Notes under the pieces: model-generated | What the model saw: only the letters and a program-made list of their open reading frames with translations | What the model was told of the DNA's origin: nothing | The model's database searches: none | Source: a virus | Lineage: Duplodnaviria; Heunggongvirae; Uroviricota; Caudoviricetes | Reading direction: 5' to 3' (one strand) | DNA: 64,000 nt | IMG/VR virus record: IMGVR_UViG_3300035655_000051 | Coordinates: 34,232-98,231 of that record | Part shown: positions 1,768 to 58,767 of the stretch, in pieces | Layout of the letters: each line of letters starts with the position of its first letter | Position numbering within the stretch: the first letter of the stretch is position 1 | Made by a program: the position numbers and the translations under genes

Positions 1768-2373
1768 TCAAGTGAGCATTTCTGCCCACGTATTTAAAAT
1801 GGATTCAATCGGATCTCTCTTCGCAAATCCATCTAGTTTTGATTCAGCGATCGTTTGATTCAGATATTCATGATAGATGTCTCTGTATTGCCACACACGA
1901 CCATGAGTATCATTTGTGTACTTACCACGTTTTATATACTTTTTATATGTACCCTCTCCCACCTGATATCGTAGGAGAGCTGCGGAGTCATTTCCTGTTG
2001 CATTTTTATGATAGGCAAGCAGGTGAACTCCACATCTAATTCCGACTCGATCATCCAACAGCTGATTCATTGATGTAATGCCGAGCGTTCTGTTCAAATA
2101 TTTGAAATTAACCTCATTGACTTGCATCAGCCCATAATCGATTGTGCCGTTTGAATTCATATGAGTCAGTCCGCTTTTAAATCGGCTTTCGTTATATATC
2201 ACGCCAAGAGCCAAACTATAATCGACGCCATATTCATCGCAGACTTGTGAAGTGTATTCTTTTAAATCCGGCTTCCAACTGTCGTATGTCCCAATTGGAT
2301 CATCAGCTGCAGCCGAAATAGTCACGCACGCAACCATAATCGTTGAGATACACGTCGCAATTATCCTCTTCAT
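1768..2373 (-). CDS. secreted lytic transglycosylase (SLT/lysozyme-like), probable endolysin or virion-associated muralytic enzyme
   Basis: N-terminal signal peptide (MKRIIATCISTIMVACVTISAAA). SLT motif E-S...GLMQVN (YNESRFKSG...DYGLMQVN). Preceded by RBS and the conserved promoter-like motif. Confidence 0.75.
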   Translation of the reverse strand: MKRIIATCISTIMVACVTISAAADDPIGTYDSWKPDLKEYTSQVCDEYGVDYSLALGVIYNESRFKSGLTHMNSNGTIDYGLMQVNEVNFKYLNRTLGITSMNQLLDDRVGIRCGVHLLAYHKNATGNDSAALLRYQVGEGTYKKYIKRGKYTNDTHGRVWQYRDIYHEYLNQTIAESKLDGFAKRDPIESILNTWAEMLT

Positions 2374-2392
2374 CTTATCACCTCCTTGCTGT

Positions 2393-2416
2393 AGATATAT
2401 TTAAGTCATGTTTGTG
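2393..2416 (-). promoter_or_regulatory. conserved promoter-like motif, copy 1 (minus-strand reading CACAAACATGACTTAAATATA)
   Basis: 22-nt motif found five times in the window. Here it lies about 20 nt upstream of the RBS/ATG of the 1768..2373 gene. Confidence 0.4.
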
Positions 2417-2453
2417 CATCGAAAGATAAAGAGCCTTTCGGCTCAATATCTTT

Positions 2454-3524
2454 TTAAATTTTTCGTGCTTTGGACGCCATCAAACAATACTCTCTATATA
2501 CCGTTTGCGGAACTGTATAATTACCATACTTTCCATCTATTATGTTTTCTTTTACAAATTCTAATCCGTACTTTTTTTCGTCCACTCTCATTTCGTGGAA
2601 CAGTTTTAATTTTGAAATGGTTGCGCCCTTTATAATAACATTTTTATACGGAGAATCTTCTGGAAGTTCTTTATTCGCTTTTCGTTCCACTTCCATAACC
2701 TTTTTTACGAACGAATACGGCACTTGCTGATCAGCTTCTTGTTCTTTTTTTCTTCCTCTTGAAGTATTTCTTAACAAGTATGGAGAATCAGCATAATACT
2801 CTATTCGATCATAATTTTTATTATTTCTTTCAAACGTTGTGCTATAACTATCAATGACTTTTGCACGATAAATAATATTAAATGCTGTTTCGTCATCGAT
2901 ATAAACATTTTGCACTGTATGTCCAGCGGCATCTACTTCTGTCTTTAATATTTTCGTTACAGCTGTAGATTCAAACTGATAGTAAAGCAAAATCATTAAC
3001 GCTGCCGGCATCGTATATTTTTCATGACCAAGCACAGTCGAAACATATTCTATAAAGGACTCCTTATCTTCAAAAATAAAGTCAGAGTCTAGAGAGTTTG
3101 TTTCGTTTTCGCTTGCAACCTCCATCTGTTTAATCAACATCGAAGACCAGACGTCGGTTTTGTTTGAGCTTCTAGATACTGTACTAGTCATATCATGACC
3201 ATAATACTGTTCGGCGTTGATATAATCGTTTTGATAACACCATTTAAGATAGGCTCTTAAAATAGATGTCATTCTTACTCTTCTTGTATCTGCCAAATTG
3301 TTAAGCCACAAAACACAAAGATCATTCATCTCTGTTGAGCCGCTTTTAAATTCACAGAAATCTTTATTGTATTTTGTTTCAACAATCGCAACCTTATTCA
3401 ACGCAGTTACTGCATCTCTTTGTCTGTACCTAGCGGCGTCTTCGTTTCTTCCACCGTTGATATAAAACTCCATGAAAGCAGCTTTGCGATCGTAGTTGTA
3501 CATCGTGCTGTCCATCATATTCAC
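2454..3524 (-). CDS. hypothetical protein (356 aa)
   Basis: Long protein-like ORF; no motif recognised. Confidence 0.6.
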   Translation of the reverse strand: MNMMDSTMYNYDRKAAFMEFYINGGRNEDAARYRQRDAVTALNKVAIVETKYNKDFCEFKSGSTEMNDLCVLWLNNLADTRRVRMTSILRAYLKWCYQNDYINAEQYYGHDMTSTVSRSSNKTDVWSSMLIKQMEVASENETNSLDSDFIFEDKESFIEYVSTVLGHEKYTMPAALMILLYYQFESTAVTKILKTEVDAAGHTVQNVYIDDETAFNIIYRAKVIDSYSTTFERNNKNYDRIEYYADSPYLLRNTSRGRKKEQEADQQVPYSFVKKVMEVERKANKELPEDSPYKNVIIKGATISKLKLFHEMRVDEKKYGLEFVKENIIDGKYGNYTVPQTVYREYCLMASKARKI

Positions 3525-3593
3525 TCCTTACATAGTGAGGGTGTTTTTATAATATTTTACACTATGTAAGGAGTTTTTTCAATAGACAATAAT

Positions 3594-4010
3594 TTATGCA
3601 ATTGTTAAAACAGGACTATCTGTTGATTCTTTTCTTAGGAAAGGGCACTGAACTTTCATTGCTTCCACAACGCGCTCCCAGTTTCCTTCCGTGAACTCGC
3701 CCACCGGTTCACTAAGCTGGCAATTTCGCAGCGTATCTCTTCCCTCAATGATCAGAGTGGAATCTTTGATTAACCCTCTTACCTCGCCCGCCTTATACTC
3801 AATGTGAACTGGATTGTACTTGCCGATCCGCTTTGTGGTGAACGGAATAACTTCGCACTGTCCAGAAGTCTTATTGTAAGTATTATTTGACACGACGAGA
3901 TACGGATGGACGCCAACGTATTTATGAGTACTTAGTCGGCTTTCATCGTCACTGGCATATCCAAAACGGATTTCGCCAATCTTCGGGATGCTCTTTCCAG
4001 CCACGAACAT
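3594..4010 (-). CDS. hypothetical protein (138 aa)
   Basis: ORF with strong RBS AAGGAGGT before the ATG; a consensus sigma70 promoter lies upstream. Confidence 0.6.
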   Translation of the reverse strand: MFVAGKSIPKIGEIRFGYASDDESRLSTHKYVGVHPYLVVSNNTYNKTSGQCEVIPFTTKRIGKYNPVHIEYKAGEVRGLIKDSTLIIEGRDTLRNCQLSEPVGEFTEGNWERVVEAMKVQCPFLRKESTDSPVLTIA

Positions 4011-4051: not shown

Positions 4052-4080
4052 ATTATATCACCTCAAACCTGACTTGTCAA
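4052..4080 (-). promoter_or_regulatory. sigma70-type promoter (TTGACA-17 nt-TATAAT)
   Basis: Minus strand reads cTTGACAagtcaggtttgaggtgaTATAATggtac: perfect -35 and -10 with 17-nt spacer, about 40 nt upstream of the 3594..4010 ATG. Confidence 0.55.
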
Positions 4081-4099
4081 GCGTTTTTATTCATTTTAT

Positions 4100-4123
4100 T
4101 TTTAAGTTATGTTTGTAAAATGA
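4100..4123 (-). promoter_or_regulatory. conserved promoter-like motif, copy 2 (partial: ACAAACATAACTTAAAAATA)
   Basis: Same motif family as 2393, 28896, 36493 and 50505. Here it sits just upstream of the sigma70-like promoter. Confidence 0.35.
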
Positions 4124-11795: not shown

Positions 11796-12407
11796 TTATT
11801 CCTCGTTCACGATCTCGATCTGGCACATCTTCATAGCTGCCAGCGCATTCTTGTGGGACTCAGGAGTAACACCAGCGCAGCAGCTTGCATCCACAATGAT
11901 AGGAACCTCAGGTAGTGCTGCCTTAAGCAGAAGCGCGTTCGAAATGACACAGATATCCGTGCAAAGGCCGACCAGAGTGATGGAATTGATCTCAAAATCT
12001 GCCATTTCTCCAATTGTAGAGAAATGAGAGTCGCATAAATCTTCCATTAGCAATGTCGAACCGAAAGTTCTCTTTTCGTAAATTTTTGCTTGTGGATCTT
12101 TCATTTCCGGCAAAAGATCGTGTTCGATTTCATCAACAAATAACCAGCCCCTCGTATGTTCGATACAATGTTTTACAGGAAGATGTTTGCCTTCCTGAGT
12201 TTCGAGGTAGTTGTCATAATGCGTATCCTGCGTATACAGAATTTCACCATTCCAGTTCTTGATCTTCTCCATGACCTTTGGCACAATGGCCTGCGCTTCA
12301 GGAGTACCCAGCGAACCGGTGACAAAATCATTCTGCATATCGACAACGATCAGAATATCAACCTTTGTCTTTTCCATTACCAACTCCTCCTTGATTAGCC
12401 CCACCAA
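11796..12407 (-). CDS. isochorismatase-family cysteine hydrolase, nicotinamidase (PncA)-like
   Basis: LIVVDMQNDF (catalytic Asp region) and VGLCTDICV (catalytic Cys) match isochorismatase/PncA motifs. Confidence 0.7.
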   Translation of the reverse strand: MVGLIKEELVMEKTKVDILIVVDMQNDFVTGSLGTPEAQAIVPKVMEKIKNWNGEILYTQDTHYDNYLETQEGKHLPVKHCIEHTRGWLFVDEIEHDLLPEMKDPQAKIYEKRTFGSTLLMEDLCDSHFSTIGEMADFEINSITLVGLCTDICVISNALLLKAALPEVPIIVDASCCAGVTPESHKNALAAMKMCQIEIVNEE

Positions 12408-13159
12408 TTAAACAAGGTTGGGTCATACATAGGCATCGGCAAATCCTTAAACAAATTTGCCTCGTGCATCCGATCGATCTTGGCAGCAGTTGCAGTGTCT
12501 CCGCCAAACTCGCCAGTGCGAATATATTTGTCGAGGAAATCATAGGTGAAGCCGAAATTATCCTCGTCGGTCTTTCCAGTCAGCCCATCTGCAGGCGCTT
12601 TCTCGATGAACTTTTCAGGAAGACCCAACTCACGACCAACGGCTTTTACCTCAGTAACAGTCAGCTTACTGAGAGGACTGAACTGGCCAAATCCATCTCC
12701 TCCAACAGTTTGCCACCCGACGAAATTTTCTGAAGCGTTACAAGTGTTGGCCACTCGCCCATTCATACTCTGAGACACCATGAACAGAGTCGCCATACGA
12801 ATTCGTGCCGGCAGATTCACACGAGCCTGCTTGGAATCACATAGACCAGCTGCCCGTCCATTGGCCAGCAGCGCATTCACAGTCTCAGCGATATTGATCT
12901 CAAAGGACTTGATACCTAGATGCTTAACCAAATCCCGCGCTACATCGATGTCGTCCTGCACCCCTTGCGGCATCAGAACGCCGATCACTCGACCATTACC
13001 AAGCGCTTCACAGCACAGAGCTGCCACAATGCTGGAATCCTTGCCGCCAGAAATACCAACCACAGCATTGCAGTCAGGACCATTCTTGCGGAAATAATTC
13101 TGAATCCACGTAATGATTTCATCCTTTGTCTTTGCTGCATCAAATTCATACTTGCGCAT
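12395..13159 (-). CDS. nadE: NH3-dependent NAD+ synthetase
   Basis: PP-loop VVGISGGKDS; NLPARIRM and GDG/KLTVTEV stretches as in NadE; about 254 aa. Confidence 0.8.
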   Translation of the reverse strand: MRKYEFDAAKTKDEIITWIQNYFRKNGPDCNAVVGISGGKDSSIVAALCCEALGNGRVIGVLMPQGVQDDIDVARDLVKHLGIKSFEINIAETVNALLANGRAAGLCDSKQARVNLPARIRMATLFMVSQSMNGRVANTCNASENFVGWQTVGGDGFGQFSPLSKLTVTEVKAVGRELGLPEKFIEKAPADGLTGKTDEDNFGFTYDFLDKYIRTGEFGGDTATAAKIDRMHEANLFKDLPMPMYDPTLFNWWG

Positions 13160-13160
13160 A

Positions 13161-13649
13161 TTACTTCTCCTCCAGTTTCCATAGTTCTACGTCGACACCT
13201 TGAAATGTAGTATCGATTATTTTCTTAACTGTATTCCAATCAGCCCCACCACGACAACACCCAATCTTATATGGCATTGCTACTTTGAAGCCCTTGCTTC
13301 TTGCTTTTGTTGCGACAGTAGCGAAAGCGTGTTGTAGTGCAGCAAGATCTGTGTATTGTTTTCCATCATATCCGTAATTGTCTTGTGCAAAACAATTAAC
13401 GATACAACGATCATCAGACACCTTCACGAATTGAGCCGTACCCAAGAGAGTATGGTTGTGGTTCGTAATTGCGTTATAGCATCTTTTCAAATATGCGTAA
13501 TACACTTCTGGATAACGCTCGCGAACTTCTTTGGCAACACCTGACCCCATTACACCCTGACAATTCACCTGATGGCAAATAATGTCGGCATCGGAATCAA
13601 ATACGTTGCCTTCTTTGATTACAACAGCCATTAGAACTTCCCTCCCCAC
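13161..13649 (-). CDS. Macro-domain protein (ADP-ribose binding/processing)
   Basis: ICHQVNCQGVMGSGVAKEV matches the macro-domain VNAAN..L..GGGV motif. Confidence 0.65.
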   Translation of the reverse strand: MGREVLMAVVIKEGNVFDSDADIICHQVNCQGVMGSGVAKEVRERYPEVYYAYLKRCYNAITNHNHTLLGTAQFVKVSDDRCIVNCFAQDNYGYDGKQYTDLAALQHAFATVATKARSKGFKVAMPYKIGCCRGGADWNTVKKIIDTTFQGVDVELWKLEEK

Positions 13650-15109
13650 AGTCGGTCACGAACTTCTTTCAAACTGTACTCCTTGACCATCGCGCCATTA
13701 CGGAATACGGTTTGCAGCATGTTCCCGTCAGAATGAGCGGCGTGATCCATTAGGCCATCAGTACAAACCAGCTTTCCAGAATCATCCTTAGTGACATAAC
13801 ACATACCCTTCAGACTCTTCTTAAAGTGATCAGTGTCGGTCTTGGGGTCCTTGAAGATCTGAATCTCCTTGCCATTGACCACGCCATAAGTTGCCTTGAC
13901 TGCCATACCAAAAGTATCACGGGTGAACGGCTTCAACTGACCATTCTGCTCGATGCACTGCATGGAGAAAGAACCAACGCCGAGACTGACATTGTTGCAG
14001 GCGAAGCCGTGTGCTTTGAGTTCTGCATAAATCTTTTCGCAGCGCTGCACCGTAATGGAATCGCCATACAGAGCCTTTACATGAGGGTCTAGCACCTTAT
14101 AACCCTTACTGTTAACCGTGCCGCCGAAGATGTCCCACAGATGATAGACGGTCTGCGTAACGATTTCGACCGGATCGCCAGAGTCACCACGGATTAGCAG
14201 CGTACCATTATGAGCCATGATTTCATCCTTGAGCTGCGGCAGGATATTATCGACCAGATTCCAATAGTCGTAGGAATCAGATACCATGCTGAAGCTCATA
14301 TTGGGATACAACTCAGTCAGTGCCCGGCGGATGAAAGTGATCTCATCGCCATCGACTGCGAAGTTGGAACACATGACGCTATGCTCGGTACTAACAGCGC
14401 CAAACGCGACCGGCTCCTTAGTGCAATCACAGTGATACATCTCTTCCAGATACGGGACTGCAGGAACAGTGGCCGTATTCAAAAAGCTTAGACACCACCC
14501 AGCGCTGGATTTGACAGCAGACTGCATACACTCCTGACCACGGAAACTGAAATCGCCCAGAGCACGAGCATGAGGCACACCATCCTCGACGGTTTCATCG
14601 TAATACTTGTCCACGATATCACGATACAGAGTACCAACCGTCGCAGAAATCATCGGATGCCACAGCTCAGAACTCATAAATGATTCGAGGAACTGCGGAA
14701 CCCATGCAAAATCAGGATGCGTATTGCTCATCTCAAGGAACGGTACATGAATGGGGCAGCGAGTACCCTCGGGCAGTGCTTTGATCTCGACAGGAAGATA
14801 GCCCAGGTCATGCAGGGCAGCAATCTTATCGATATCATAAGCGTCCTTGCCAATGGTTGCGTCCAGGACACGCTGATAATTTGAGACAACCCACTCCTTT
14901 GGGAAATCAAAAAACCAACGTTTAAAATAATTCTGCAGATAATTCTTGCAGAACGCCTGAACACCAAACACAACGACTTCATCCACGCCATCCAGACGGC
15001 TCATGCGCGGAGTAAAATAACTGACCAGCTTAGTGGTGCCGGCCGGAAACTGCTTACTGTGAGTCGTCTTGTAGAAATCACATAGTAGCATCGGGTTAAT
15101 ATTGATCAT
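13631..15109 (-). CDS. nicotinamide phosphoribosyltransferase family protein (NadV/NAMPT-like; possibly a Namat-type nicotinamide ADP-ribose transferase)
   Basis: 492 aa, N-terminus PMLLCDFYKTTHSKQFP typical of the NAMPT family, directly downstream of a PRPP-synthetase-like gene. Confidence 0.8.
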   Translation of the reverse strand: MININPMLLCDFYKTTHSKQFPAGTTKLVSYFTPRMSRLDGVDEVVVFGVQAFCKNYLQNYFKRWFFDFPKEWVVSNYQRVLDATIGKDAYDIDKIAALHDLGYLPVEIKALPEGTRCPIHVPFLEMSNTHPDFAWVPQFLESFMSSELWHPMISATVGTLYRDIVDKYYDETVEDGVPHARALGDFSFRGQECMQSAVKSSAGWCLSFLNTATVPAVPYLEEMYHCDCTKEPVAFGAVSTEHSVMCSNFAVDGDEITFIRRALTELYPNMSFSMVSDSYDYWNLVDNILPQLKDEIMAHNGTLLIRGDSGDPVEIVTQTVYHLWDIFGGTVNSKGYKVLDPHVKALYGDSITVQRCEKIYAELKAHGFACNNVSLGVGSFSMQCIEQNGQLKPFTRDTFGMAVKATYGVVNGKEIQIFKDPKTDTDHFKKSLKGMCYVTKDDSGKLVCTDGLMDHAAHSDGNMLQTVFRNGAMVKEYSLKEVRDRLWGGKF

Positions 15110-15123
15110 TCTAAATATCTCCT

Positions 15124-15324
15124 TTATTTTACTGGGTCGTCTGGTCTAAAAAATGCGGGGCGCTTCACATTCGGATGCGCTTCATCGACATACGCCTCAT
15201 ACACTGCATTAAATTCAAATCCAAAATTATCTTTGATAAGAGGTATTTTAATATACAGTGTTGCATAATAATCTGACGAATCAAAAAAACGACCACCAAC
15301 CTCAATGTCTTTGAACTTTCTCAT
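15124..15324 (-). CDS. hypothetical small protein (66 aa)
   Basis: Short ORF. Confidence 0.35.
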   Translation of the reverse strand: MRKFKDIEVGGRFFDSSDYYATLYIKIPLIKDNFGFEFNAVYEAYVDEAHPNVKRPAFFRPDDPVK

Positions 15325-15333
15325 TCATGTTCC

Positions 15334-15567
15334 TCAGATATCAAGCTTTAGAAGAAAAACATCCACGATTTTTGAAACAACAGACTCATTACTCTTCCAA
15401 GCGTAAACGTCATCAGCGTTGATATAAGATCCATTTTCTGTGTACCAGCACTGTTTGTTGTGATCATAATGACCTTTTACGATATACTTCCCTGCCAGAT
15501 TCACCTTGAACATCACAACCTGACTGTTCATTGCAGGAAGTGCTTTATCTGTATCAATCCAAAACAT
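15334..15567 (-). CDS. hypothetical small protein (77 aa)
   Basis: Short ORF. Confidence 0.35.
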   Translation of the reverse strand: MFWIDTDKALPAMNSQVVMFKVNLAGKYIVKGHYDHNKQCWYTENGSYINADDVYAWKSNESVVSKIVDVFLLKLDI

Positions 15568-15569
15568 AT

Positions 15570-16397
15570 TTAGTCTTCATCCCACTTGTGTTCCAAAACA
15601 GTGATCTTGTCGTGATGGCCGGTGAAGATACTATCCGTGGTATAGACCATATGAATCAGCTCCGGGTCGTCAAACAGATGGCCGCGTTCCTGATTCAGAA
15701 TACTGTTCTCGCAGTGGCTGACATACATATCGATATCACCCGCACCCAGTTCCTTCAGCTTCTTGGCCGAATAGTACATAGTGCCGCCGTAAGAGCAGAT
15801 ATCATCGATCATCAGAACTTTGCCACCCTTGGGAGGATAACCGGTGACATCCAAGCCGAGAATCTTTCCGGTCTTCCAGTCACGCTTCTTGTCTCCGTGA
15901 ATGATATAAGCCTTACAACCCACACGATCGAGTGCCCAGTGAACAGTTTCCTCGTATCGTTTCATTGCGCCGGCATCCGGGAAGTAGATTACATCAGGCT
16001 TACTTTCTTCGATTGCCTGACAAATCTCACGAATCGGAGTGTGTACTTCACAACGATCGATCAGAGCCGGAGCCACATCGCTGTGAGGATCAAATACAAC
16101 AACGCGGTTAAATCCGCACCGATTGATCTCATCGGCAAACCACTTGAGAGTAAACACATCCTCATCGTGATAAGCGCGATCCATACGGGCGTTCGGAATA
16201 TACGGCATAAACAGCTCGACTTCTGCCCCGTTATCCTTTGCGTCCTTTGCGATCATAATGACTGTGGGGAGCTCTGCCATGGATTCAAACGTCCAGACGA
16301 TATTGATCGCATTGAGATAATTGATAGCTTTATCCTTCTTAATCAGCGGAGTGCCATCAGGGAAAGAACTGATTTCATAATAATTTGCTTTGACCAT
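15570..16397 (-). CDS. ribose-phosphate pyrophosphokinase (PRPP synthetase) family protein; possibly Adps-type ADP-ribose pyrophosphokinase
   Basis: 275 aa; PRTase-type PRPP-binding loop VLMIDDICSYGGTM; overall Prs-like layout. Confidence 0.75.
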   Translation of the reverse strand: MVKANYYEISSFPDGTPLIKKDKAINYLNAINIVWTFESMAELPTVIMIAKDAKDNGAEVELFMPYIPNARMDRAYHDEDVFTLKWFADEINRCGFNRVVVFDPHSDVAPALIDRCEVHTPIREICQAIEESKPDVIYFPDAGAMKRYEETVHWALDRVGCKAYIIHGDKKRDWKTGKILGLDVTGYPPKGGKVLMIDDICSYGGTMYYSAKKLKELGAGDIDMYVSHCENSILNQERGHLFDDPELIHMVYTTDSIFTGHHDKITVLEHKWDED

Positions 16398-21110: not shown

Positions 21111-21126
21111 GTTCTTTTACCTCTTT

Positions 21127-21399
21127 TCATAATAGACTTTTACATGTAAACGGTTTTTTAGATTCTTCGAACATTTCATCTGTCCAATATCTGGAGCTTT
21201 CTTTTACCCTGTAACACATTACATTCCCACAACAATCATAACTCTCGATTGTTACTTGTTTCCCTCGAAGATTTTCCATAGAATGAATAGCAATAATGTC
21301 ATCATATGGAGTTTCTCCTGACAACATCTTGTATATTTTACGATCTGATAAATCTTTTCTAACCGTCACTTTATCTCCGGGTTTAAACTTATAGTTCAT
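21127..21399 (-). CDS. CKSLL-tail family member 4 (ends ...SKKPFTCKSLL)
   Basis: N-terminus MNYKFKPGDKVTVRKDL..., YWTDEMF, and conserved tail. Confidence 0.65.
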   Translation of the reverse strand: MNYKFKPGDKVTVRKDLSDRKIYKMLSGETPYDDIIAIHSMENLRGKQVTIESYDCCGNVMCYRVKESSRYWTDEMFEESKKPFTCKSLL

Positions 21400-21402
21400 A
21401 GT

Positions 21403-22218
21403 TTATTCTCCTTCAAACCAGTCGGAAACATTCTCAGCGACTTCATCAAGTTTTTCCTGATCCATTTTGATATATCTCATCGTAATACGTTGGTCGCTGT
21501 GATTAAATTTTGTTTGAAGAATATTCAAGATGTTCGCTCCATCAACTGTACCCTCGGCGCTTTGTAATGCTGCCATAGCATAAGTTTTACGCATACTATG
21601 AGTGGATAGCTCAATGTCCAAACCGCACGCCTTACCAGCTTTCTTCAAAAGGTTGCTCACCGATCTAACGTTAAGCTGTCCACCTTTCTTGCTCTGAAAA
21701 AGAAGCGTGTCACGGTCAATTCGAAAACTAATTGCCTGATAATATTCTCTTAAAGCTTCTTTTGCCATATGAGAAATTTTACACACGTTTCGCTTGCCGG
21801 TCTTCTGCTCGATCAGCTCAACATGATCTTTTACATGAGCGTTCTCATAATAAACATCAGCCGTTTTAAGCTTCAACAAATCGCCGCATCGAACACCAAT
21901 TGAACAGCCGAGAATAAACATCGTTTTGTTTCTAAGCGCGATTTCTTCAGATCCGTTAGACCCAAGGTACTCAACAATCTTCTTGAAATCTTCCTTTGAC
22001 TTGATAGGATCTGCCGGGGTTGGCTTTCTGCGCCCATCCTTGAGATAAAGACTATCCGTCCGACGAGGTTTCCGTGCTTTTTTCGTTGCAGTGGCACTTT
22101 TAACTGCCTGCTGAATAATTCGTTCAATATCGTCCTCTGTAACGACGAGTTTTGCAGGCCGATCTTCAACTGGGAAAAGAATGGTTTTTTGTGCCACTTT
22201 CTTTGCGGTTTCTGCCAT
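21403..22218 (-). CDS. tyrosine site-specific recombinase (phage integrase family)
   Basis: C-terminal catalytic region ...ELSTHSMRKTYAMAA...MRYIKMD has the R...HxxR...Y arrangement; 271 aa. Confidence 0.75.
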   Translation of the reverse strand: MAETAKKVAQKTILFPVEDRPAKLVVTEDDIERIIQQAVKSATATKKARKPRRTDSLYLKDGRRKPTPADPIKSKEDFKKIVEYLGSNGSEEIALRNKTMFILGCSIGVRCGDLLKLKTADVYYENAHVKDHVELIEQKTGKRNVCKISHMAKEALREYYQAISFRIDRDTLLFQSKKGGQLNVRSVSNLLKKAGKACGLDIELSTHSMRKTYAMAALQSAEGTVDGANILNILQTKFNHSDQRITMRYIKMDQEKLDEVAENVSDWFEGE

Positions 22219-22232
22219 TAAAATTCACTCCT

Positions 22233-22496
22233 TTACAAAAGACTTTTACATGTAAGTGGTTTTGGAGACTCGAACATCGTGTCAGTCCAATAATGGCTAT
22301 CCTCACAGAGCGTATAAACACCGCAGATTTGGCATTCGATTGTCATAAGTTGACCACGGTGTCTTTCCATATCTTTATTAACTCCCGGATCGCAGCCATA
22401 ACTTTCTCCGCTTTGCATTGGATATTCTGCGCCGGCTGTCAAGTCTTTCCGAATTCTTACTTTTTGTCCAATTTTATATTTGTAATCCATAATCAA
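22233..22496 (-). CDS. CKSLL-tail family member 5 (ends ...SPKPLTCKSLL)
   Basis: N-terminus DYKYKIGQKVRIRKDL..., HYWTDTMF, and conserved tail. Confidence 0.65.
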   Translation of the reverse strand: MIMDYKYKIGQKVRIRKDLTAGAEYPMQSGESYGCDPGVNKDMERHRGQLMTIECQICGVYTLCEDSHYWTDTMFESPKPLTCKSLL

Positions 22497-22836: not shown

Positions 22837-23175
22837 TTACTTGGATTCTTTGTCCTGTTTTCGCAGTTCATCAACAAGACATTCCAAACAGCTCTGTAGA
22901 GCGTCGTGTCCGGCCTCAAGCATTGCCTGATGAATATTCACTTCAAAATCACACAAGAGATCTGCACATAAGCTCATATCCTCTGCATCGATTTCTTTGA
23001 TGCCAAGCTCCTTGATTGCGCTTGCAACGTCGGAAGGCCCCCAATAGACCATTGCTCTGTGGTCGTCGATATCCAACAGGTCAACTGGACACCCGATGGA
23101 TTCCTCTACGACACTTGCCGCTTGATCGAGCAATTCAACTGGAGTGCCGCCATCTCTACACATCATTTCAATCAT
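22837..23175 (-). CDS. small acidic protein co-transcribed with the RT (112 aa)
   Basis: Its start overlaps the RT stop (ATGA); acidic and Cys-containing; no motif recognised. Confidence 0.5.
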   Translation of the reverse strand: MIEMMCRDGGTPVELLDQAASVVEESIGCPVDLLDIDDHRAMVYWGPSDVASAIKELGIKEIDAEDMSLCADLLCDFEVNIHQAMLEAGHDALQSCLECLVDELRKQDKESK

Positions 23176-24410
23176 TAGAAAACAACTCCTTCTTTTGGTT
23201 TTAAGTCAGCTTTGAGCATTGCCATCATATCAACATGATACTTTTCGTTGTACCGAGAAATCACCGTGTCGACCGATTCTTTTTCTACCATACGGTAGTA
23301 ATTCAGCCTGCCATTAAACTGCTGCAGGTCTTCAAGATCCCACGTTTTTCCTTCTTTCTTGCAGACGATGTAATTAGATGCCATCTTCTTAAAGTCCTTA
23401 AAATTGCGCCATCCGACTGTGATATCGTTATTGGCATTCCACATCAGACCGAGCATCCAGTTTTCGCTCGAATGCCGATTACCATAATGCGTTTTTTCTT
23501 CATTCAAAGTAAACGGAGCATTGATTGCATCCAACATCTCTTTGATGATATCCTGCATTTCCATCGGGTCAAAACTCAAATAGCAGCTGATGGTGATATC
23601 GTCTGCATATCTGGTGTATGTAAAAGTGCGAGAAATGCCGTCTTTCATGGTATATTTGTAAGAAAGCTTCTTATTTAACATATAATCAAACGGGATCATC
23701 ATAACGTTCGTGATCCACGGACTGATTGGCGTTCCCTGCGGAAGACCGCCGTTCAAGAAGCACAGGCGCATCGCTTTAGTCAGCTGGTTGTATCCATTTC
23801 GATCCTTCATAATGAGAGAAAACGGATAAATCTTGCTGAACATGCCGTAGATAAACTCAGGAGTGGAGCTCGGGAAGAATCCATGAAAGTCAAACTTGAC
23901 AGCCCAGTTGTTTTCATAGGTGACGATCTTTTCTTTCCCAGTCTCACGATCTTTTACTGTATATCTGTGTCCCGCCTGATGCTTTTTAATTGCACTCAGA
24001 GTGCCGCGCCCATTGATATATGCGTGTGCTGCCGTGTGATAATCAGCAATCATGAAACTTTTTAACAGCGTCCGCAACTCAACCAACGCATCGCTCAGTT
24101 CATTGTTCGGTGCATCAATTGGACGAACGCCACCAGTCTTCTTAGGAATTTCGAAGTGATAGTAATGCGTCGACAGGTCACGTACCGCTTCAAGACGGGC
24201 GTATTTCTGATTGAATTCCGTAAGCCGTGTAATCATATTGGTAACGTTTGTAATGGCTACGAGACGATCATTCAACCCATTACGCTGTACAGTTCGAGTA
24301 GAAGTTTCATCGCCAGCATATTTTAACTGGTTCACGTCAACGACTCCGCTAAGGATTTCATCAAACGTAATCTGCCTTGTTCTCGGCGGATTCCAATAAG
24401 TAACGTACAT
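23175..24410 (-). CDS. reverse transcriptase (retron/group-II-like, YADD type)
   Basis: RT motifs FEIPKKTGGVRPIDAP (1/2), LPQGTPISP (4), TYTRYADDITIS (5), FTLNEEKTHYG (6/7). 411 aa, no endonuclease domain. Confidence 0.85.
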   Translation of the reverse strand: MYVTYWNPPRTRQITFDEILSGVVDVNQLKYAGDETSTRTVQRNGLNDRLVAITNVTNMITRLTEFNQKYARLEAVRDLSTHYYHFEIPKKTGGVRPIDAPNNELSDALVELRTLLKSFMIADYHTAAHAYINGRGTLSAIKKHQAGHRYTVKDRETGKEKIVTYENNWAVKFDFHGFFPSSTPEFIYGMFSKIYPFSLIMKDRNGYNQLTKAMRLCFLNGGLPQGTPISPWITNVMMIPFDYMLNKKLSYKYTMKDGISRTFTYTRYADDITISCYLSFDPMEMQDIIKEMLDAINAPFTLNEEKTHYGNRHSSENWMLGLMWNANNDITVGWRNFKDFKKMASNYIVCKKEGKTWDLEDLQQFNGRLNYYRMVEKESVDTVISRYNEKYHVDMMAMLKADLKPKEGVVF

Positions 24411-24702: not shown

Positions 24703-25377
24703 TTATGCAGCCGTAACGTTAAAAGTGTACGGATTTGCAACGATCATTTTCTTCAAAGGTGCGATATTGGTCGCGAAATTGATAAAGTTCGTAACCGCCA
24801 AACAACACACGAAACGAACAGTCGGGGCGAGACCTTGAACGATGCCACATGCAGAAACCGGAGTGCCAGCCTGCGCATCTTCATGAGAGAAGTTCATAGA
24901 ATTCCATAAATTCTCTCGGTCTTTTTCCTTGCTCCAATCCGCTGCCCAGCACTGTGCATCATGGAATCCAGTGCGGACATCAAACACGCCCTTGATGTTC
25001 GGGTTGTACTTGTTCGCTTCCATGAACTGCTTGCGAATTTCGATGTTGTCGACCGCGAGGAACACATAACCGCGAATCATCTCGCCCTGCCAACCATTCG
25101 GCTTCAGAACGATTTCATCTTTGGCATCAGGATTGATGGCACAGATAATATCGCGAACCGCCTCGACTTTTGGAGCTTCAATATTGTTGGCGAAGAACAT
25201 CTGGTTGACGATATTCTTGCTTTCAACCTCGTCCATATCCCACAGCGTGAAATTCTTCAGACCATACCGTGCGAGAAGTTCCGCCACGGTAGAGCCAACC
25301 GAACCACAACCAATAATGTGGATCTGGCCGCTGATATCATCGGGGTTGAATACCATTTCAAGCTTACTCAGATTCAT
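24703..25377 (-). CDS. E1-like (ThiF/MoeB-family) ubiquitin-activating-type enzyme
   Basis: IHIIGCGSVGSTVAELLARYG (GxGxxG Rossmann), DMDEVESKNIVNQ and KVEAVRDIICAINP match the ThiF/E1 adenylation-domain pattern. Confidence 0.75.
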   Translation of the reverse strand: MNLSKLEMVFNPDDISGQIHIIGCGSVGSTVAELLARYGLKNFTLWDMDEVESKNIVNQMFFANNIEAPKVEAVRDIICAINPDAKDEIVLKPNGWQGEMIRGYVFLAVDNIEIRKQFMEANKYNPNIKGVFDVRTGFHDAQCWAADWSKEKDRENLWNSMNFSHEDAQAGTPVSACGIVQGLAPTVRFVCCLAVTNFINFATNIAPLKKMIVANPYTFNVTAA

Positions 25378-28741: not shown

Positions 28742-28873
28742 TCACCCGTTGTACCTTATGCGGTTTGCAGTAGCTCCTTCATATCATCCAGAGCTTCATC
28801 CCATGTATCGGCCGACTGAATAAACTGACCACTATCCGCCGATACGATTTCATAGTGGCCGTCAACATACTTG
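28742..28873 (-). CDS. micro-ORF (43 aa, MVIKYVDGHYEIVSAD...)
   Basis: Below the ORF-track threshold, but preceded by RBS AAAGGAG and by copy 3 of the conserved promoter-like motif. Confidence 0.4.
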
Positions 28874-28895
28874 ATAACCATTTCTTCACTCCTTT

Positions 28896-28921
28896 ATATA
28901 TTTAAGTTATGTTTGTATGGT
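28896..28921 (-). promoter_or_regulatory. conserved promoter-like motif, copy 3 (CCATACAAACATAACTTAAATATATA)
   Basis: About 23 nt upstream of the micro-ORF ATG. Confidence 0.4.
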
Positions 28922-30378: not shown

Positions 30379-30464
30379 TGGTGCGCCCGGCGGGACTTGA
30401 ACCCGCACGCCATCTCTGGCAGAAGATCTTAAGTCTCCTGTGTCTGCGATTCCACCACGGGCGC
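30379..30464 (-). tRNA. tRNA-Leu (anticodon TAA), type II
   Basis: Acceptor GCGCCCG/CGGGCGC + A + CCA, anticodon loop CTTAAGA, long variable arm, T-arm GCGGGTTCAAGTCCCGC. Confidence 0.8.
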
Positions 30465-30772
30465 ATATAAAAGAAAATCAGAAACAGCCAACATTCGTTT
30501 TACGTTCCAGTTTACTGGCTACCTGAAGGGTATTCGTCCGACAGCTACTCGGCTTGCACCTTATTCCCCTTCCTATTTGGCTCAGTATCATTTACCGGTG
30601 TGATACCTGTCGTTTGCCAATGAACGGCCAATCCCCGATCTAGCTGGAACAACTGATTTTCTATTCCTCATTTAGTTAGAGACCTAATGAGTAAAGATGT
30701 CTACCTACACCGGTTGTGGACGGACTTACCCGGCTGGATTTCTATGTAGGAGTCTCAAACCGTCGCACACAA

Positions 30773-30847
30773 TGGAGCAGCGAATGGGAGTCGAACCCAC
30801 GCCATCGACTTGGAAGGACGATGTACTAGCCGTTATACGACCGCTGC
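30773..30847 (-). tRNA. tRNA (probable Gly, anticodon TCC; one anticodon-stem mismatch)
   Basis: Acceptor GCAGCGG/TCGCTGC + CCA, T-arm GTGGG-TTCGACT-CCCAT, anticodon loop CTTCCAA. Confidence 0.55.
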
Positions 30848-30966
30848 ATATAAACCCGGCTTACTAAGCCTTATTGCCACAGCATACGCCATGGAGCCGG
30901 GAATAACAAGGAAGAAAAGAGGTAAAGCCCGAATAGGAGGAATGAGACCCTATAAGCGGGCATCGG

Positions 30967-31035
30967 AGTGACTGGTTGGACTTGAACCAACGGCGCGCAG
31001 TTAGCTTGCTGCTCTACCATCTGAGCTACAGTCAC
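30967..31035 (-). tRNA. atypical short tRNA-like gene (68 nt, anticodon arm and variable loop about 4 nt too short)
   Basis: Perfect acceptor GTGACTG/CAGTCAC, canonical D-arm GCTCAGATGGTAGAGC and T-arm GTTGG-TTCAAGT-CCAAC. Only 19 nt remain for the anticodon arm plus variable loop, with a possible GCAG/CTGC stem and 8-nt loop. Confidence 0.4.
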
Positions 31036-31188
31036 ATAAAATACTCGGCTTACAAAGGTCAACTGCACTCTTTCAAGTGAGCCGAGAATAATTGACGAAG
31101 AAGTATAAAAATGAACTCCCCCTTTCGGGGTGGTATCTCGCACAGGCGCGGCCGGATCTGACCGCTAAAGATCCTACCCATACGAGAT

Positions 31189-31275
31189 TGGTGCTCACAA
31201 GAAGACTCGAACTTCCACGTCATAAAAGACAAGGGACCCTAAAACCCTCGCGGCTGCCAGTTTCGCCATGTGAGC
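31189..31275 (-). tRNA. tRNA-Leu (anticodon TAG), type II
   Basis: Acceptor GCTCACA/TGTGAGC + A + CCA, D-arm GGCGAAACTGGCAGCCGC, anticodon loop TTTAGGG, long variable arm, T-arm TGGAAGTTCGAGTCTTCT. Confidence 0.6.
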
Positions 31276-31412
31276 ATATCAAGAGCAGGGTTGCGTACCT
31301 GCTACGACTTGTTCAGTCACGGTTGTCTTATGTTTGGAGGGACACGAAAACAACTAATCCGATATAAAGGAGAAATATGAGAATACGAGGGACGCAATGA
31401 CCAAACGCCCCA

Positions 31413-31498
31413 TGGTGCAGCTAGTCGGATTTGAACCGACACGGATTTTCACCAGCAGATTTTGAGTCTGCCGCGCCTGCCTATTACGCCATAGCTGC
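31413..31498 (-). tRNA. tRNA-Leu (anticodon CAA), type II
   Basis: Acceptor GCAGCTA/TAGCTGC + A + CCA, anticodon stem GCAGA/TCTGC with loop CTCAAAA, long variable arm, T-arm CGGTTCAAATCCG. Confidence 0.8.
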
Positions 31499-34725: not shown

Positions 34726-34829
34726 ATATAAAGCAGGGTTATCGTACCTGCTCGGCATTTTCAGCCACGCGGTTTCGCCTAATGGAAACCGTTTTTATAC
34801 ACACAATAGGCACAGGTAGAAAGGAAAGA

Positions 34830-36492: not shown

Positions 36493-36522
36493 TATGTATA
36501 TTTAAGTCCTGTTTGTGAAATG
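36493..36522 (-). promoter_or_regulatory. conserved promoter-like motif, copy 4 (CATTTCACAAACAGGACTTAAATATACATA)
   Basis: About 25 nt upstream of the RBS GGGAGG / ATG of the Bro-N gene. Confidence 0.4.
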
Positions 36523-36977
36523 ATGATAACACATTTTCTCTGCGTCGTCAATTGTTATTATAAACAGAACTTAAACATACTTTTTGTACTATTTTTGTCG
36601 ACTACCTTATTTATAATAGGCGTTAGGCAGCGCCTCAATTAGCTATGCATAAATCATTGTATATTATTCATCCTTTCTGCATATTTATGCATTATTATTC
36701 ATCGAGATCTAAATGATGTTGTTGCTCTTTTAAGCTCTCAAGAATTGATCTTAAAAAGGTCCCGAAGTTGATCAGTACCCGTCCAACTCGCGTTGATTGA
36801 GTTCAATTGATGAGCTTCTGTCGAACTTTGATGAGTTACTTCGTTGAGTTTCGGGCGTTTTGCAACCAAATCGCCTTGCTCGGCGTTCAGTGGTTCTGGG
36901 TCTGACGTCCGTCGACTCGTTCGGAGGCTGAAGGCAGGCCCCTCCGCCCCGGGATACCTCATCCTACCTTTGCGTAA

Positions 36978-50465: not shown

Positions 50466-50494
50466 TTGCAAATAACAAAAATTTGGTGTATAAT
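50466..50494 (+). promoter_or_regulatory. sigma70-type promoter (TTGCAA-17 nt-TGTGTATAAT, extended -10) for the rightward block
   Basis: Seen directly: cTTGCAAataacaaaaatttgGTGTATAATat. Confidence 0.5.
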
Positions 50495-50504
50495 ATAGGT
50501 ATGA

Positions 50505-50528
50505 TATATTTAAGTCCCGTTTGTGCTG
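50505..50528 (-). promoter_or_regulatory. conserved promoter-like motif, copy 5, facing the ORF-free 48.9-50.3 kb region
   Basis: atatatttaagtcccgtttgtgctg in the same orientation as the other four copies. Here no protein-coding gene follows on the minus strand. Confidence 0.35.
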
Positions 50529-50652
50529 CTGAGAGCATTTCTCGCCCGCTATGTTCTGGCAGCTCAAAATTTCGCCCTTACAAACAGTACTTAAACATAT
50601 TAACCGTAAACGATATCCAATACATCCTTATCAAGGAGGACAATGATCCACT

Positions 50653-56217: not shown

Positions 56218-58767
56218 ATGTTTTCTCCTCCATTGTATAGCGTTTTAAAGTTTCCTCTTAACTATATTATTACCCATGATTATAATTTCAAACTAACTGA
56301 CGAAGAACTTATTCATTTCACTGTGTTACAGGGAGATAATATGATGTTCCGCCAAATTCGTATGATATCTATGAATGACGATAAGTTTCAGAAATTTGTT
56401 GTTTTTGTTGACGCTACAGGTGGATACAACAAACCAAAAGCTCTTGAACGCCTTGTAAAACACGGATTTAAAATCAATGGAGAAACGTATTTGTTTAGTG
56501 AACGCAGTGCAAGTATGGTTCGTCAAAGCATGCTCAGCTTTGTTGAGCGTCATATTGCACCAGAACTTGATAGGCGAATTAGTATGGGGCTTGATTTTTC
56601 TGAAACGCCAACTGTTCTTAGCAAATATTATGCTTATCGTGGTTTGAATCTGTCGTCTGCTTTTTGCTTACCGGAATGGGAACCTAAAATTTGTATCGTT
56701 GATGATTACGAGAACACAATTAAAGACCAAATGGTTGAATATCTATACGATAAAACAACAGAATTCATTGATAAAGCGGGTAACAAAAGAAGTTGGACAC
56801 AAAAAGATGTTGCTGTAAAGAAAGCCGATATCACTATTAACTGCTTCGATGGTGCAGGTATTTGTCACCCAGAAATCATGCGCCAGATTGAACGCAAAAT
56901 AAATACTGATGAACATATTAACAGTTGTATTATTCGCGCACCATATATCAAAGGATGCATGCACGAGATTGATTATGAATCATTTTATGCGGAGCGTGGC
57001 GTTACAAAAATCAAAGATATTTGGGGGCAAGAATATGATGTAACTCCCGGCAGCGAACCACTTATGATTCTTACCGTCAGCCTTTATAAAGGATATAAAT
57101 ATTTCAAGAAAGACGGCACATATAAAGACTGGGAGAGATATTGGGAATGGTTTCGTAAAACAAAAAGCTGCTTTGCTATTGCGAAATGGAATTATAGTGC
57201 TGAACGAGAAAATTTAACCACAAAATGCAATTATCAAATTTTGCAAAATATAGACCTAGAATTCGATGATTTCAAACACTTCGCTGACATGTCTGTAGAT
57301 TTTTATGAAAAGGTCACAAGTGATGATATTTTTTACACTGATTGTTTCCTTGGATTAATGGCTGACGATGTCAATCCTTTGAATCACTATATTGCTGCAT
57401 TAGCACGTAATCAAGAAATGATTCACGAGCCATGCGTTAAAGAGTACGTCCATTCCTTACTTGATAAAACTCGTGATGGATTTAAATGTGGGAAACTCTG
57501 GATGAATGCAACATTTAAATTTTGGGTACCAGATCTTGTTGCTCTAATGGAATGGGCTGGCGGGCTCCCTGTTGTTGGAGCGTTAAAGGCTGGTGAGATT
57601 TATACTTTTGATCGTCGTGGCGTTGCACTTGGAGACCGCATTTGTGAACGAAACCCCCATATATCAAGATCAGAGCACCTGCTTGTTAGCGCCGTCGATA
57701 ATGAATTGACTCAAAAATATTTTCATGGACTTGTAAATTGTTGTTTCACTTCGATTTATGACATTAACGCACCTCGGCTCAATGGTTCCGATTTTGACGG
57801 CGACCTCGTCCTTGTTATTGATGAACCTTCCATGATTCCTGGAGTACATACAGATATTCCTATTACGTTGGATCTTGAGGACAAAAAGACTGCTCTTGCT
57901 GAAACTGATACCCTTGACAATAAATTTGCTTGTACTCTTCGTGGTCTTAAAAGTCAAATTGGCGAGATTTCAAATTTAAGCACTGTCTATCAAAACAAAG
58001 TTCCTAAGACTGAAAAGACAAAACAAGAATATTTGAAATATGTTTCTCTTTTGTCCGTCGCAAATGGAAAGGAAATCGATAGAGCTAAAACTGGCTGCGG
58101 ATATAAGATTCCTAGAAATATACAGAAATATGGTACTGGTCCTAAGAGTACGCCATATTTTATGAAATATGCAGGCCCTTACTATGCACGTTTACATAAT
58201 CTTAGCAAGGCACACAGCAATATGAATTTACTCTGTATGAGCCTCGAGCGCTGGGAGCGTGGAGTCCGTTGGCATAAAGAGCCTGCTGGTAGTTTTGATT
58301 GGCACATAATGTACGATTCGGAAATTGGCTATGATCAGGCTGTATTTAATGAGATTGAAGCAATCTTTCTGGACTTTAATAAATATCGCAAGCAGCAGTT
58401 GGAGCTTGAAAAGAAAGCCAAAAATTGGAAACTTTATCGTAAAGAGCTTGAAGGTATCATGACGAAAGAAGAAGCAAAGACCTATGAAACCAACTGGCAA
58501 GCAATTTATAACGTGTATCGTAATAAGTGCAAGCTGATCTGTCCTGATGTTCGTGAGTTGGCTAATATTCTAGTCGTGTTGTGCTATGAAAAATATCCCA
58601 ACAAATTTAAAAAGTTCCTATGGCACATGGCTGGTGCTGGTGTGGTTGAAAATATCAAACCAGTTCCTGTGCAGTTACCAATTCACGACCCGAACGGCGA
58701 GTATGAATATCTTGGTCAGAGATACAGTCTGGCTGAGCCGAGAACCTATGAAGCGAGGGTGAAGTAA
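56218..58767 (+). CDS. large protein with the DFDGD metal-binding motif: candidate YonO-like single-subunit (two-barrel) DNA-dependent RNA polymerase
   Basis: 849 aa. NGSDFDGDLVLVIDEP recalls the universally conserved NADFDGD catalytic loop of multisubunit RNAP beta-prime and of the SPbeta prophage RNAP YonO. Size is similar to YonO. Confidence 0.45.
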   Translation: MFSPPLYSVLKFPLNYIITHDYNFKLTDEELIHFTVLQGDNMMFRQIRMISMNDDKFQKFVVFVDATGGYNKPKALERLVKHGFKINGETYLFSERSASMVRQSMLSFVERHIAPELDRRISMGLDFSETPTVLSKYYAYRGLNLSSAFCLPEWEPKICIVDDYENTIKDQMVEYLYDKTTEFIDKAGNKRSWTQKDVAVKKADITINCFDGAGICHPEIMRQIERKINTDEHINSCIIRAPYIKGCMHEIDYESFYAERGVTKIKDIWGQEYDVTPGSEPLMILTVSLYKGYKYFKKDGTYKDWERYWEWFRKTKSCFAIAKWNYSAERENLTTKCNYQILQNIDLEFDDFKHFADMSVDFYEKVTSDDIFYTDCFLGLMADDVNPLNHYIAALARNQEMIHEPCVKEYVHSLLDKTRDGFKCGKLWMNATFKFWVPDLVALMEWAGGLPVVGALKAGEIYTFDRRGVALGDRICERNPHISRSEHLLVSAVDNELTQKYFHGLVNCCFTSIYDINAPRLNGSDFDGDLVLVIDEPSMIPGVHTDIPITLDLEDKKTALAETDTLDNKFACTLRGLKSQIGEISNLSTVYQNKVPKTEKTKQEYLKYVSLLSVANGKEIDRAKTGCGYKIPRNIQKYGTGPKSTPYFMKYAGPYYARLHNLSKAHSNMNLLCMSLERWERGVRWHKEPAGSFDWHIMYDSEIGYDQAVFNEIEAIFLDFNKYRKQQLELEKKAKNWKLYRKELEGIMTKEEAKTYETNWQAIYNVYRNKCKLICPDVRELANILVVLCYEKYPNKFKKFLWHMAGAGVVENIKPVPVQLPIHDPNGEYEYLGQRYSLAEPRTYEARVK

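Follow-up and report, generated by a model that had tools for sequence, protein, structure and literature searches.

A conserved and oriented 20-bp repeat in a human-gut phage genome is the probable operator of an MrpR/SroF-like repressor

The DNA analysed here, referred to below as the window, is a stretch of 64,000 nucleotides from an uncultured virus of the Caudoviricetes (IMG/VR record IMGVR_UViG_3300035655_000051, positions 34,232 to 98,231). From position 1 to about 50.3 kb, all genes are read leftward; the rightward genes begin at 50.65 kb. The leftward part contains an operon that begins with the gene of a PemK/MazF-like toxin and ends with the gene of a 356-aa protein, a putative repressor. 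The rightward operon is headed by a PhoH-like gene and includes the gene of a YonO-type single-subunit RNA polymerase (RNAP). It also encodes Ant/Rha-like and BRO-N-like proteins. A reverse transcriptase gene was inspected for DGR-type repeats in its vicinity, and none were found.

Within this region, an element of 20 bp with the sequence ACAAACATAACTTAAATATA occurs repeatedly. Copies were counted by a pattern search on both strands, for exact matches and then for matches with up to three mismatches. The sequence TATATTTAAGTYNYGTTTGT has four exact plus-strand matches (at 2396, 28897, 36497 and 50505), where 0 are expected in the 64-kb window. When up to three mismatches are tolerated, the count rises to seven, whereas chance alone would give 0.11 (Table 1). 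The seven copies are spread over 48 kb and lie in distant intergenic regions. Read toward the downstream gene, their consensus is AyAAACr-NN-ACTTAAA-N-ATA, with 17 fixed positions, and the predicted operator form is ACAAACAnnACTTAAAyATA. The element is asymmetric and lacks dyad symmetry. All seven copies share the direction of the adjacent downstream transcription unit. At two loci they form divergent pairs (36497/36560, 63 bp apart, and 50505/50580, 75 bp apart), with segments of 43 bp (36517-36559) and 55 bp (50525-50579) in between. An earlier note on this DNA had described five copies with the same sequence and in one orientation. All five exist at the loci that it named, with start positions that were 0-4 nt off (4097 instead of 4100, for example). 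However, one of them, at 4097, is not exact but carries a mismatch, and the two copies on the opposite strand, at 36560 and 50580, had been missed.

Table 1. Copies of the repeated element and neighbouring features, in window coordinates
Feature	Position	Strand	Remarks
Copy 1	2396..2415	-	Sense strand ACAAACATGACTTAAATATA; exact match
Copy 2	4097..4116	-	ACAAACATAACTTAAAAATA; one mismatch (plus strand reads TATTTTTAAGT...)
Copy 3	28897..28916	-	Exact match
Copy 4	36497..36516	-	Exact match; about +1 to +20 of promoter 36551-36523
Copy 5	50505..50524	-	Exact match; inverted, about +4 to +24 of promoter 50466-50494
Copy 6	36560..36579	+	ATAAACAGAACTTAAACATA; divergent partner of copy 4
Copy 7	50580..50599	+	ACAAACAGTACTTAAACATA; 75 bp from copy 5
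Sigma-A-type promoter	4052..4080	-	TTGACA-17-TGnTATAAT, 12/12; just downstream of copy 2
Sigma-A-type promoter	36523..36551	-	TTGACG-17-TGnTATCAT; between copies 6 and 4
Sigma-A-type promoter	50466..50494	+	TTGCAA-17-TATAAT; runs through copies 5 and 7 into the PhoH...RNAP operon
Gene of putative MrpR/YopR/SroF-family integrase-fold protein	2454..3524	-	356 aa; Pfam MrpR_N_CB
PemK/MazF-like toxin gene	3594..4010	-	PF02452, E 2.4e-8; first in the operon that ends with the repressor gene
YonO-type single-subunit RNA polymerase gene	56218..58767	+	849 aa; Pfam RdRP PF05183, E 2.8e-14

The copies differ in their placement relative to genes. Copies 1, 3 and 4 end 2-8 nt before a Shine-Dalgarno (SD) sequence and 15-22 nt before a start codon, a position that had previously been ascribed to four copies (15-25 nt upstream of the RBS/ATG) and that is confirmed for these three. 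Copy 1 lies between the repressor gene, whose terminator ends 15 nt before it, and an SLT-domain gene (1768-2373), whose SD follows after 8 nt. Copy 3 is separated by 2 nt from the SD of a 41-aa gene (28756-28881), which is followed by a 155-aa gene, and copy 4 by 4 nt from the SD of a 500-aa BRO-N/Ant-like gene (34975-36477). Copy 7 precedes the SD of the PhoH-like gene by 34 nt. Copies 2 and 6 lie upstream of -35 elements, at a distance of 16 nt from that of the toxin-repressor operon promoter and of 8 nt from that of the leftward promoter shared with copy 4, respectively. Copy 6 faces an ORF-poor stretch at 36.6-37.2 kb, and copy 5, in its sense direction, points toward 1.3 kb of DNA in which no ORF is credible. 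The settings of copies 2 and 5, upstream of a sigma70-like promoter and beside a long ORF-free region, had both been recognized correctly in the earlier note. The two ORF-poor regions of the window have no Rfam match, and they resemble neither each other nor the non-coding gap downstream of PyonO in SPbeta.

The element does not itself look like a promoter for the host polymerase. No acceptable pair of -35 and -10 hexamers at a spacing of 16-18 bp can be placed inside the 20-mer, in line with what had been noted before. Host-type promoters are nevertheless close to several copies. Among the 33 strong sigma-A-like sites of the window, 3 are located at most 17 nt from a copy, with 0.35 expected (P about 0.005, a value that is somewhat inflated because motif and promoters both favour intergenic DNA). 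The three include the only 12/12 site of the window. The register between motif and promoter differs among them, and copy 7 adds a further register, at about +79 of the rightward promoter 50466-50494. In a contig from a separate phage (L129), the order is TTGACA-17-TGnTATCAT, then the motif, then the RBS. Such a variable register with respect to host-type promoters is the behaviour of an operator and not of a promoter. Copies 1 and 3 are located after hairpins and next to an RBS, and have only weak -10-like hexamers upstream.

The location of copies 1, 3, 4 and 7, which would all lie in a 5' leader beside the SD, may be taken as a hint that the motif acts in RNA, as a 5'-UTR element for translation control or processing. 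This possibility is very remote. Copy 2, being upstream of the -35 of its promoter, is not part of the RNA made from it, and a transcript from the promoter next to copy 5 contains that copy in antisense. Moreover, the motif as read from the sequence has no self-complementarity, no complementarity to the SD and no Rfam match.

The element is not confined to the window. When viral contigs were scanned, a family of contigs from human-gut phages, about 75-150 kb in length, turned out to carry 3-6 copies of the motif each, in orthologous places. In orthologous sites of related contigs, 9 of 140 columns are variable within the motif, compared with 86 of 350 in the flanks (Fisher P about 1e-6). Copy 1, for example, is invariant in its orthologues, while its flanks vary. 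The 20-bp element is under selection, because its columns vary far less than the flanks among orthologous sites. A relaxed scan beyond the window, a check that the earlier note had suggested, added two sites, one before the gene of a Sak4-like recombination ATPase and one before a 196-aa gene, so that there are about nine copies per genome (seven in the window and two outside). The genes downstream of the copies are non-structural and comprise the Sak4-like gene, the toxin and repressor operon, the RNAP operon and the gene of a peptidoglycan-lytic protein. As a set of presumed targets, they resemble the MrpR regulon. The earlier note was right in regarding the motif as a phage-specific regulatory site that acts in cis where transcription units begin. 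In bacterial genomes, the motif scan returned scattered single matches in unrelated taxa, consistent with chance, and pointed to neither a host nor a prophage. An integrated prophage copy was also sought in bacterial genomes and was not found. The phage carries a gene for a 271-aa tyrosine integrase.

The 356-aa protein, which is encoded between copies 1 and 2, is the best candidate for a protein that reads the element. Its assignment to a family required sensitive methods. A word-indexed homologue search returned near-identical proteins only, and pairwise BLAST and phmmer comparisons with MrpR and the PDB were too weak to decide the family (BLAST against MrpR gave an E of only 0.006, indicating remote similarity). 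The window protein has a weak Pfam match to MrpR_N_CB and no match to the integrase catalytic domain. An exhaustive HMMER search yielded 35 diverse relatives, and a family profile was built from an alignment of 32 sequences. PF22822 (MrpR_N_CB) is matched by all 32 aligned members, and PF00589 (Phage_integrase) by none of the 32. The three best PDB matches of the profile are SPbeta YopR/MrpR (E about 5e-7), and hhalign aligns the family with SPbeta MrpR over 255 columns, near full length (E 3.9e-6, probability 87%). An AF2 model of the protein (pLDDT 88.9) has phi3T SroF as its best Foldseek match in the PDB (E 6.6e-6), followed by Cre, XerA and lambda Int. Since the Pfam, profile, hhalign and AF2/Foldseek results agree, we place the protein among the integrase-fold repressors of the MrpR/YopR/SroF family. 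There is no invariant Arg or His in the 32-sequence alignment. According to profiles and model, the family thus appears to have kept a recombinase fold and lost the catalytic signature. A search of bacterial genomes with an alignment of eight family members revealed no related loci. Thomasclavelia phage TR-TP1, with its MazF-like/integrase/lysozyme synteny, was considered as a relative and discarded, as its integrase does not belong to the MrpR family; its AT-rich genome yielded no clean repeat.

The recombinase fold raises the question of whether the copies could be sites for a tyrosine recombinase, with the inverted pairs, which bracket or adjoin promoters at two loci, forming an invertible switch of the shufflon or inverton type. 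This is extremely unlikely. The family has neither a match to the integrase catalytic domain nor the invariant Arg and His residues, and most copies are single and tens of kb apart. In Cre/Fim-type systems, segments as short as the 43 and 55 bp between the paired copies preclude intramolecular synapsis. In about a dozen related contigs, the segment between paired copies is in one orientation throughout.

The other candidate reader is the phage RNA polymerase. Its gene product matches SPbeta yonO in a tblastn comparison (E 2e-13). Near-identical relatives show what follows the RNAP gene. Over the next 10 kb, they encode an exonuclease, a 332-aa protein, the large terminase and the portal, a gene order that is also that of SPbeta. 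SPbeta YonO is a single-subunit DNA-dependent RNA polymerase that transcribes the late genes, and a single start site has been mapped for it (PMC5467207). The primers used for start mapping place this start between positions 60,331 and 60,573 of the SPbeta record. In the earlier note, the motif was tentatively considered as a promoter for the phage polymerase. On this reading, the enzyme would bind the contiguous 20-mer, and transcription would start within or just after the TATA end and give rise to short-leader mRNAs. The window does encode a genuine YonO homologue, and the promoter sequence of YonO-type polymerases is undefined in the literature (PMC5467207). The motif is contiguous, asymmetric, co-oriented and TATA-ended, and in this respect loosely similar to T7-class promoters. 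The reading would also suit copies 1 and 3, which follow hairpins and adjoin an RBS without a convincing sigma-A promoter. It is difficult to reconcile with the distribution of the copies. With up to three mismatches allowed, the motif is absent from 51-64 kb of the window. It is also absent, in four relatives, from the 10 kb beyond the RNAP gene, where the exonuclease, terminase and portal genes are found. SPbeta YonO, by contrast, starts upstream of exactly that late module (PMC5467207). One copy heads the operon of the polymerase itself, and others are located upstream of, over, and inverted within sigma-A promoter regions. No conserved initiating nucleotide follows the motif among the copies. 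Finally, the analogous element of SPbeta is a proven repressor site (PMC10516654), and there is none in the PyonO region (60,331-60,573).

Mosaic relatives separate the two candidate readers. In four contigs, _121457, _125079, _137781 and _136856, the repressor is only 38-39% identical to that of the window, with 39% in _121457, and the polymerases are 91, 70, 62 and 63% identical, respectively. None of the four contains the motif. Three more contigs with a 92% identical polymerase lack it near the RNAP gene. Conversely, contig _104138, which combines a 97% identical repressor with a 63% identical polymerase, has kept the motif both ahead of the RNAP operon and in the surroundings of the repressor gene. 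The motif is hence present with the 97-100% repressor allele across polymerase identities from 63 to 100%. It is missing from four contigs with a 91-92% identical polymerase, and present in one with 63% identity, opposite to what would be expected for a promoter of this enzyme.

The group with the 38-39% identical repressor has a different control region upstream of PhoH, and a repeated element of its own, CAACTGTTATTATCTACC[G/C]TATA (CAACTGTTATTATCTACCsTATA; core CAACTGTTATTATCTACCGTATA). It came to light when, within one contig, the control region of PhoH was set against the repressor locus, and exact copies of its core are present four times in each of three contigs and twice in a shorter one. 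Other candidates for the variant repeat were discarded. When whole 21-kb loci of the diverged relatives were searched for repeats de novo, the output was noise, including AACATAATTCA, which is located inside coding sequence, and a search restricted to intergenic DNA suggested TGAAAwwTAAATAT and AAAGGTTAAAsTTT, which were not convincing. The variant sites are positional orthologues of window copies 1, 3, 4 and 5. They are found after the repressor gene terminator (copy 1), next to the RBS of a small M(V/Y)IKYVDGHYE gene (copy 3), next to another RBS (copy 4), and just after the sigma-A -10 upstream of PhoH (copy 5). Because motif presence and element swap track the identity of the repressor and not that of the polymerase, the cis-element is swapped along with the repressor allele, whichever polymerase a contig carries. 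We favour the repressor over the polymerase as the reader of the motif, since the motif avoids the late module and co-varies with the repressor gene. That it should be a polymerase promoter, as was suggested earlier, is quite improbable. The alternative in the earlier note, a site for an activator or sigma factor, came closer in pointing to a regulatory protein, but the factor with the best support is a repressor, which that note did not consider.

The motif could also be bound by another phage factor (a repressor, an activator or a sigma-like protein) that is encoded in the same swapped module, with the MrpR-like protein as a bystander. The comparison of mosaic genomes followed two proteins only, the polymerase and the MrpR-like protein, most ORFs of the window are without annotation, and the Ant/Rha-like and BRO-N-like products of the rightward operon may come to mind as candidates. 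We nevertheless regard this as unlikely. Among about 55 window proteins that were scanned, there is no sigma factor or other dedicated DNA-binding regulator. The MrpR-like gene is located directly between two copies, and the window element and the variant element are each found directly beside their own MrpR-like gene. Moreover, apart from the MrpR-like family, no family is known whose members recognize long asymmetric boxes in monomeric form.

Taken together, the motif is probably the repeated operator of the 356-aa master repressor of the MrpR/YopR/SroF family, and the counterpart of the SPBRE and Phi3TRE elements. Homology, geometry and co-variation are the grounds for linking motif and repressor. 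If the protein works like SroF, a single monomer would clamp each box and read almost every base pair. Monomeric clamping would account for a non-palindromic 20-mer that is conserved base for base, without the need for a special polymerase. The boxes lie where early transcription units begin, or close by. Copies 4 and 5 cover about +1 to +20 of a sigma-A-type promoter, copies 2 and 6 shortly precede a -35, and copies 1 and 3 are found between terminator and RBS. Bound repressor could block initiation or act as a roadblock to elongation. Copy 2 is likely an autoregulatory site of the putative repressor, through which the toxin-repressor operon would control its own expression. We propose that the RNAP operon is a downstream target of repression, and that the polymerase is not the reader of the motif. 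Silencing of the PhoH-Ant-...-RNAP operon would then have the indirect effect that the late genes stay off. For this phage, physical binding, the sign of regulation and a lysogenic lifestyle are what we infer.

Copies 1 and 3 are the least well explained part of the repressor-operator model. They could be accommodated if the same 20-mer were both an operator and a phage-specific promoter element. At these copies, the box, with or without the integrase-fold protein bound to it, would then recruit the YonO-type or the host polymerase after induction. We consider such a dual role quite improbable. If it were true, a YonO-class promoter or specificity factor would for the first time be defined by its sequence.

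If the operator assignment is correct, the system of monomeric MrpR/SroF repressors, itself a recent discovery, extends beyond the arbitrium phages of Bacillus, to uncultured human-gut phages of about 135-150 kb with a YonO-type polymerase. The analysis predicts two operator-repressor pairs at orthologous positions, with ACAAACAnnACTTAAAyATA and CAACTGTTATTATCTACCsTATA as the respective operators. In the manner of immunity cassettes, such pairs would be swapped without regard to the polymerase gene. The findings also advise caution in annotation, as a long oriented repeat in a phage that encodes an RNA polymerase need not be the promoter of that polymerase.

With respect to known systems, the similarity to phage polymerase promoters is a loose one. 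T7-class single-subunit RNA polymerases use contiguous, oriented promoters of about 20 bp. The window motif is likewise a contiguous oriented element of about this size that ends in TATA. Unlike T7-class promoters, it has no conserved start nucleotide and a variable position relative to genes and host-type promoters, and the polymerase of the window is of the unrelated double-psi beta-barrel, YonO type. The system shares with SPbeta a homologous polymerase and the order RNAP, small genes, exonuclease, terminase and portal (Forrest et al. 2017, PMC5467207). However, PyonO is a single site upstream of the late module, with undefined sequence, whereas the window motif is present in many copies, none of them there.

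The comparison with phi3T is closer at the level of the protein than of the DNA. SroF binds the asymmetric 26-bp Phi3TRE box as a monomer and reads 24 of the 26 bp (bioRxiv 10.1101/2025.11.27.690993). Its sites occur at multiple positions across the phi3T genome (bioRxiv 10.1101/2025.11.27.690993; Chmielowska et al. 2025; PDB 9rgl). SroF is the best structural match of the window protein, and in both systems box specificity differs by repressor allele, as is the case between the two groups of gut phages. In contrast, the boxes have no sequence similarity, and neither a Sar-like antirepressor gene nor a perfect LexA box was found in the window (there are 5 LexA matches with one mismatch, against 1.75 expected). 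AimR-like proteins or other arbitrium genes were not seen among the scanned ORFs of the window, which covers only part of the genome. An antirepressor under LexA control and an arbitrium module are, however, marks of the SPbeta-like regulatory circuit and not of the operator as such.

The closest counterpart is found in the Bacillus subtilis prophage SPbeta. Its master repressor MrpR, also known as YopR, binds the SPbeta repeated element, SPBRE, in 10 early promoter regions and represses them (PMC10516654; Kohm et al. 2023). We re-derived SPBRE from the SPbeta genome and obtained 12 copies of (t)agACAAAtAcAAAaAATATGTATAT, all co-oriented with transcription. They are located next to an RBS (yopM, yopV) or upstream of a -35 (aimR, yonT), and form pairs 64-68 bp apart at two loci. 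One SPBRE heads the yonP-yonO operon, and another heads the operon that ends in mrpR.

The two elements differ in several respects. SPBRE often itself supplies the -35 and -10 (TAGACA-17-TATAAT), unlike the window motif, and the SPbeta pairs are direct repeats, whereas those of the window are divergent. The repressors are only remotely similar, and the window phage is an uncultured human-gut phage. The sequences of the two elements have a 5' ACAAAnA and a 3' TATA in common, which amounts to only about seven positions and could be due to chance. The idea that the shared ACAAA end is a half-site for the conserved N-terminal domain was not adopted, as this domain reads the centre of the box in the SroF-DNA structure (bioRxiv 10.1101/2025.11.27.690993). 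Despite these differences, the two systems are organized alike. In both, a long, asymmetric and AT-rich element is co-oriented with downstream transcription, and a genome of roughly 135 kb contains about 7-12 copies of it. The proposed binder in the window phage is a homologue of MrpR. In both, the placement varies (next to an RBS, over +1, or upstream of a -35), some copies are paired at similar distances (63-75 bp in the window), and copies are located ahead of the repressor's own operon and of the operon that encodes the YonO-type polymerase.

A part of the window without a credible ORF, 1.3 kb at 48965-50290, has a raised GC content (about 50% versus about 44%) and is kept at 89-96% conservation by close relatives. 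Within it lies a 30-nt island (49922-49951), which includes the hairpin AAGCCCGAAGGGCTT. Even diverged phage groups, in which the DNA around the island does not align, show 90-97% conservation of the island itself. The region may encode a large non-coding RNA; its search against Rfam gave no match. A second, ORF-poor stretch is found at 36640-37260, and the rightward copy 6 of the repeated 20-bp motif (36560..36579) points into it. This stretch has no Rfam match either, and no similarity to the region at 48.9-50.3 kb.

Outside the window, a third type of control region, located about 330 nt upstream of PhoH, is present in the phages L168, L173 and L188 (contigs _123751, 3300008725_000447 and _134837), which have RNAPs that are 92% identical, but PhoH proteins that are only 53% identical. 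Neither the window motif nor the variant element, known from phages with a 38-39% identical repressor, is present in this control region of the PhoH...RNAP operon. The motif pattern is also matched exactly three times within 1.4 kb (2354-3717) of L335, a contig of a Gammaproteobacteria MAG (CAZRTB010000001.1). L335 is bacterial and unrelated to the phage family, and its three matches are possibly a local repeat.

Other features of the window are collected in the table. The tRNA types are Phe, Asn, Arg, Gly (two), Thr, Leu (three), Met and Pro. The NAD-related cluster, with isochorismatase/nicotinamidase-like, NAD synthetase, Macro domain, nicotinamide phosphoribosyltransferase and ribose-phosphate pyrophosphokinase products, may counter NAD-depleting host defences. 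A DGR-type template/variable repeat pair was sought around the reverse transcriptase, within 20-29 kb, and was not found. The tyrosine integrase gene is flanked by a 40-nt direct repeat (80% identical, 21126-21165 and 22232-22271), and the two copies may represent att-like sites or cassette boundaries.

Structured RNA, tRNA and protein-coding features of the window
Feature	Position	Strand	Remarks
Type-P5 twister ribozyme	42384-42474	-	46.5 bits vs gathering score 37.6
tRNA gene clusters, phage-borne	179-819, 1690-1764, 30379-31498, 34229-34916	-	eleven to twelve genes
PemK/MazF-like toxin gene	3594-4010	-	first in operon with repressor gene 2454-3524 (-)
NAD-related gene cluster	11796-16397	-	
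Tyrosine integrase gene	21403-22218		271 aa
Reverse transcriptase	23175-24410	-	RVT_1, E 3e-13
ThiF-family protein gene	24703-25377		adjoins reverse transcriptase gene

The Bacillus phage SPbeta also carries non-coding DNA of about the length of the ORF-free region at 48965-50290; it follows the YonO-dependent late promoter PyonO, but the two regions show no sequence similarity. The repressor operons can also be compared: that of SPbeta mrpR begins with yopM, which acts on the host MazE/MazF system, and in the window the leading gene encodes a PemK/MazF-like toxin.
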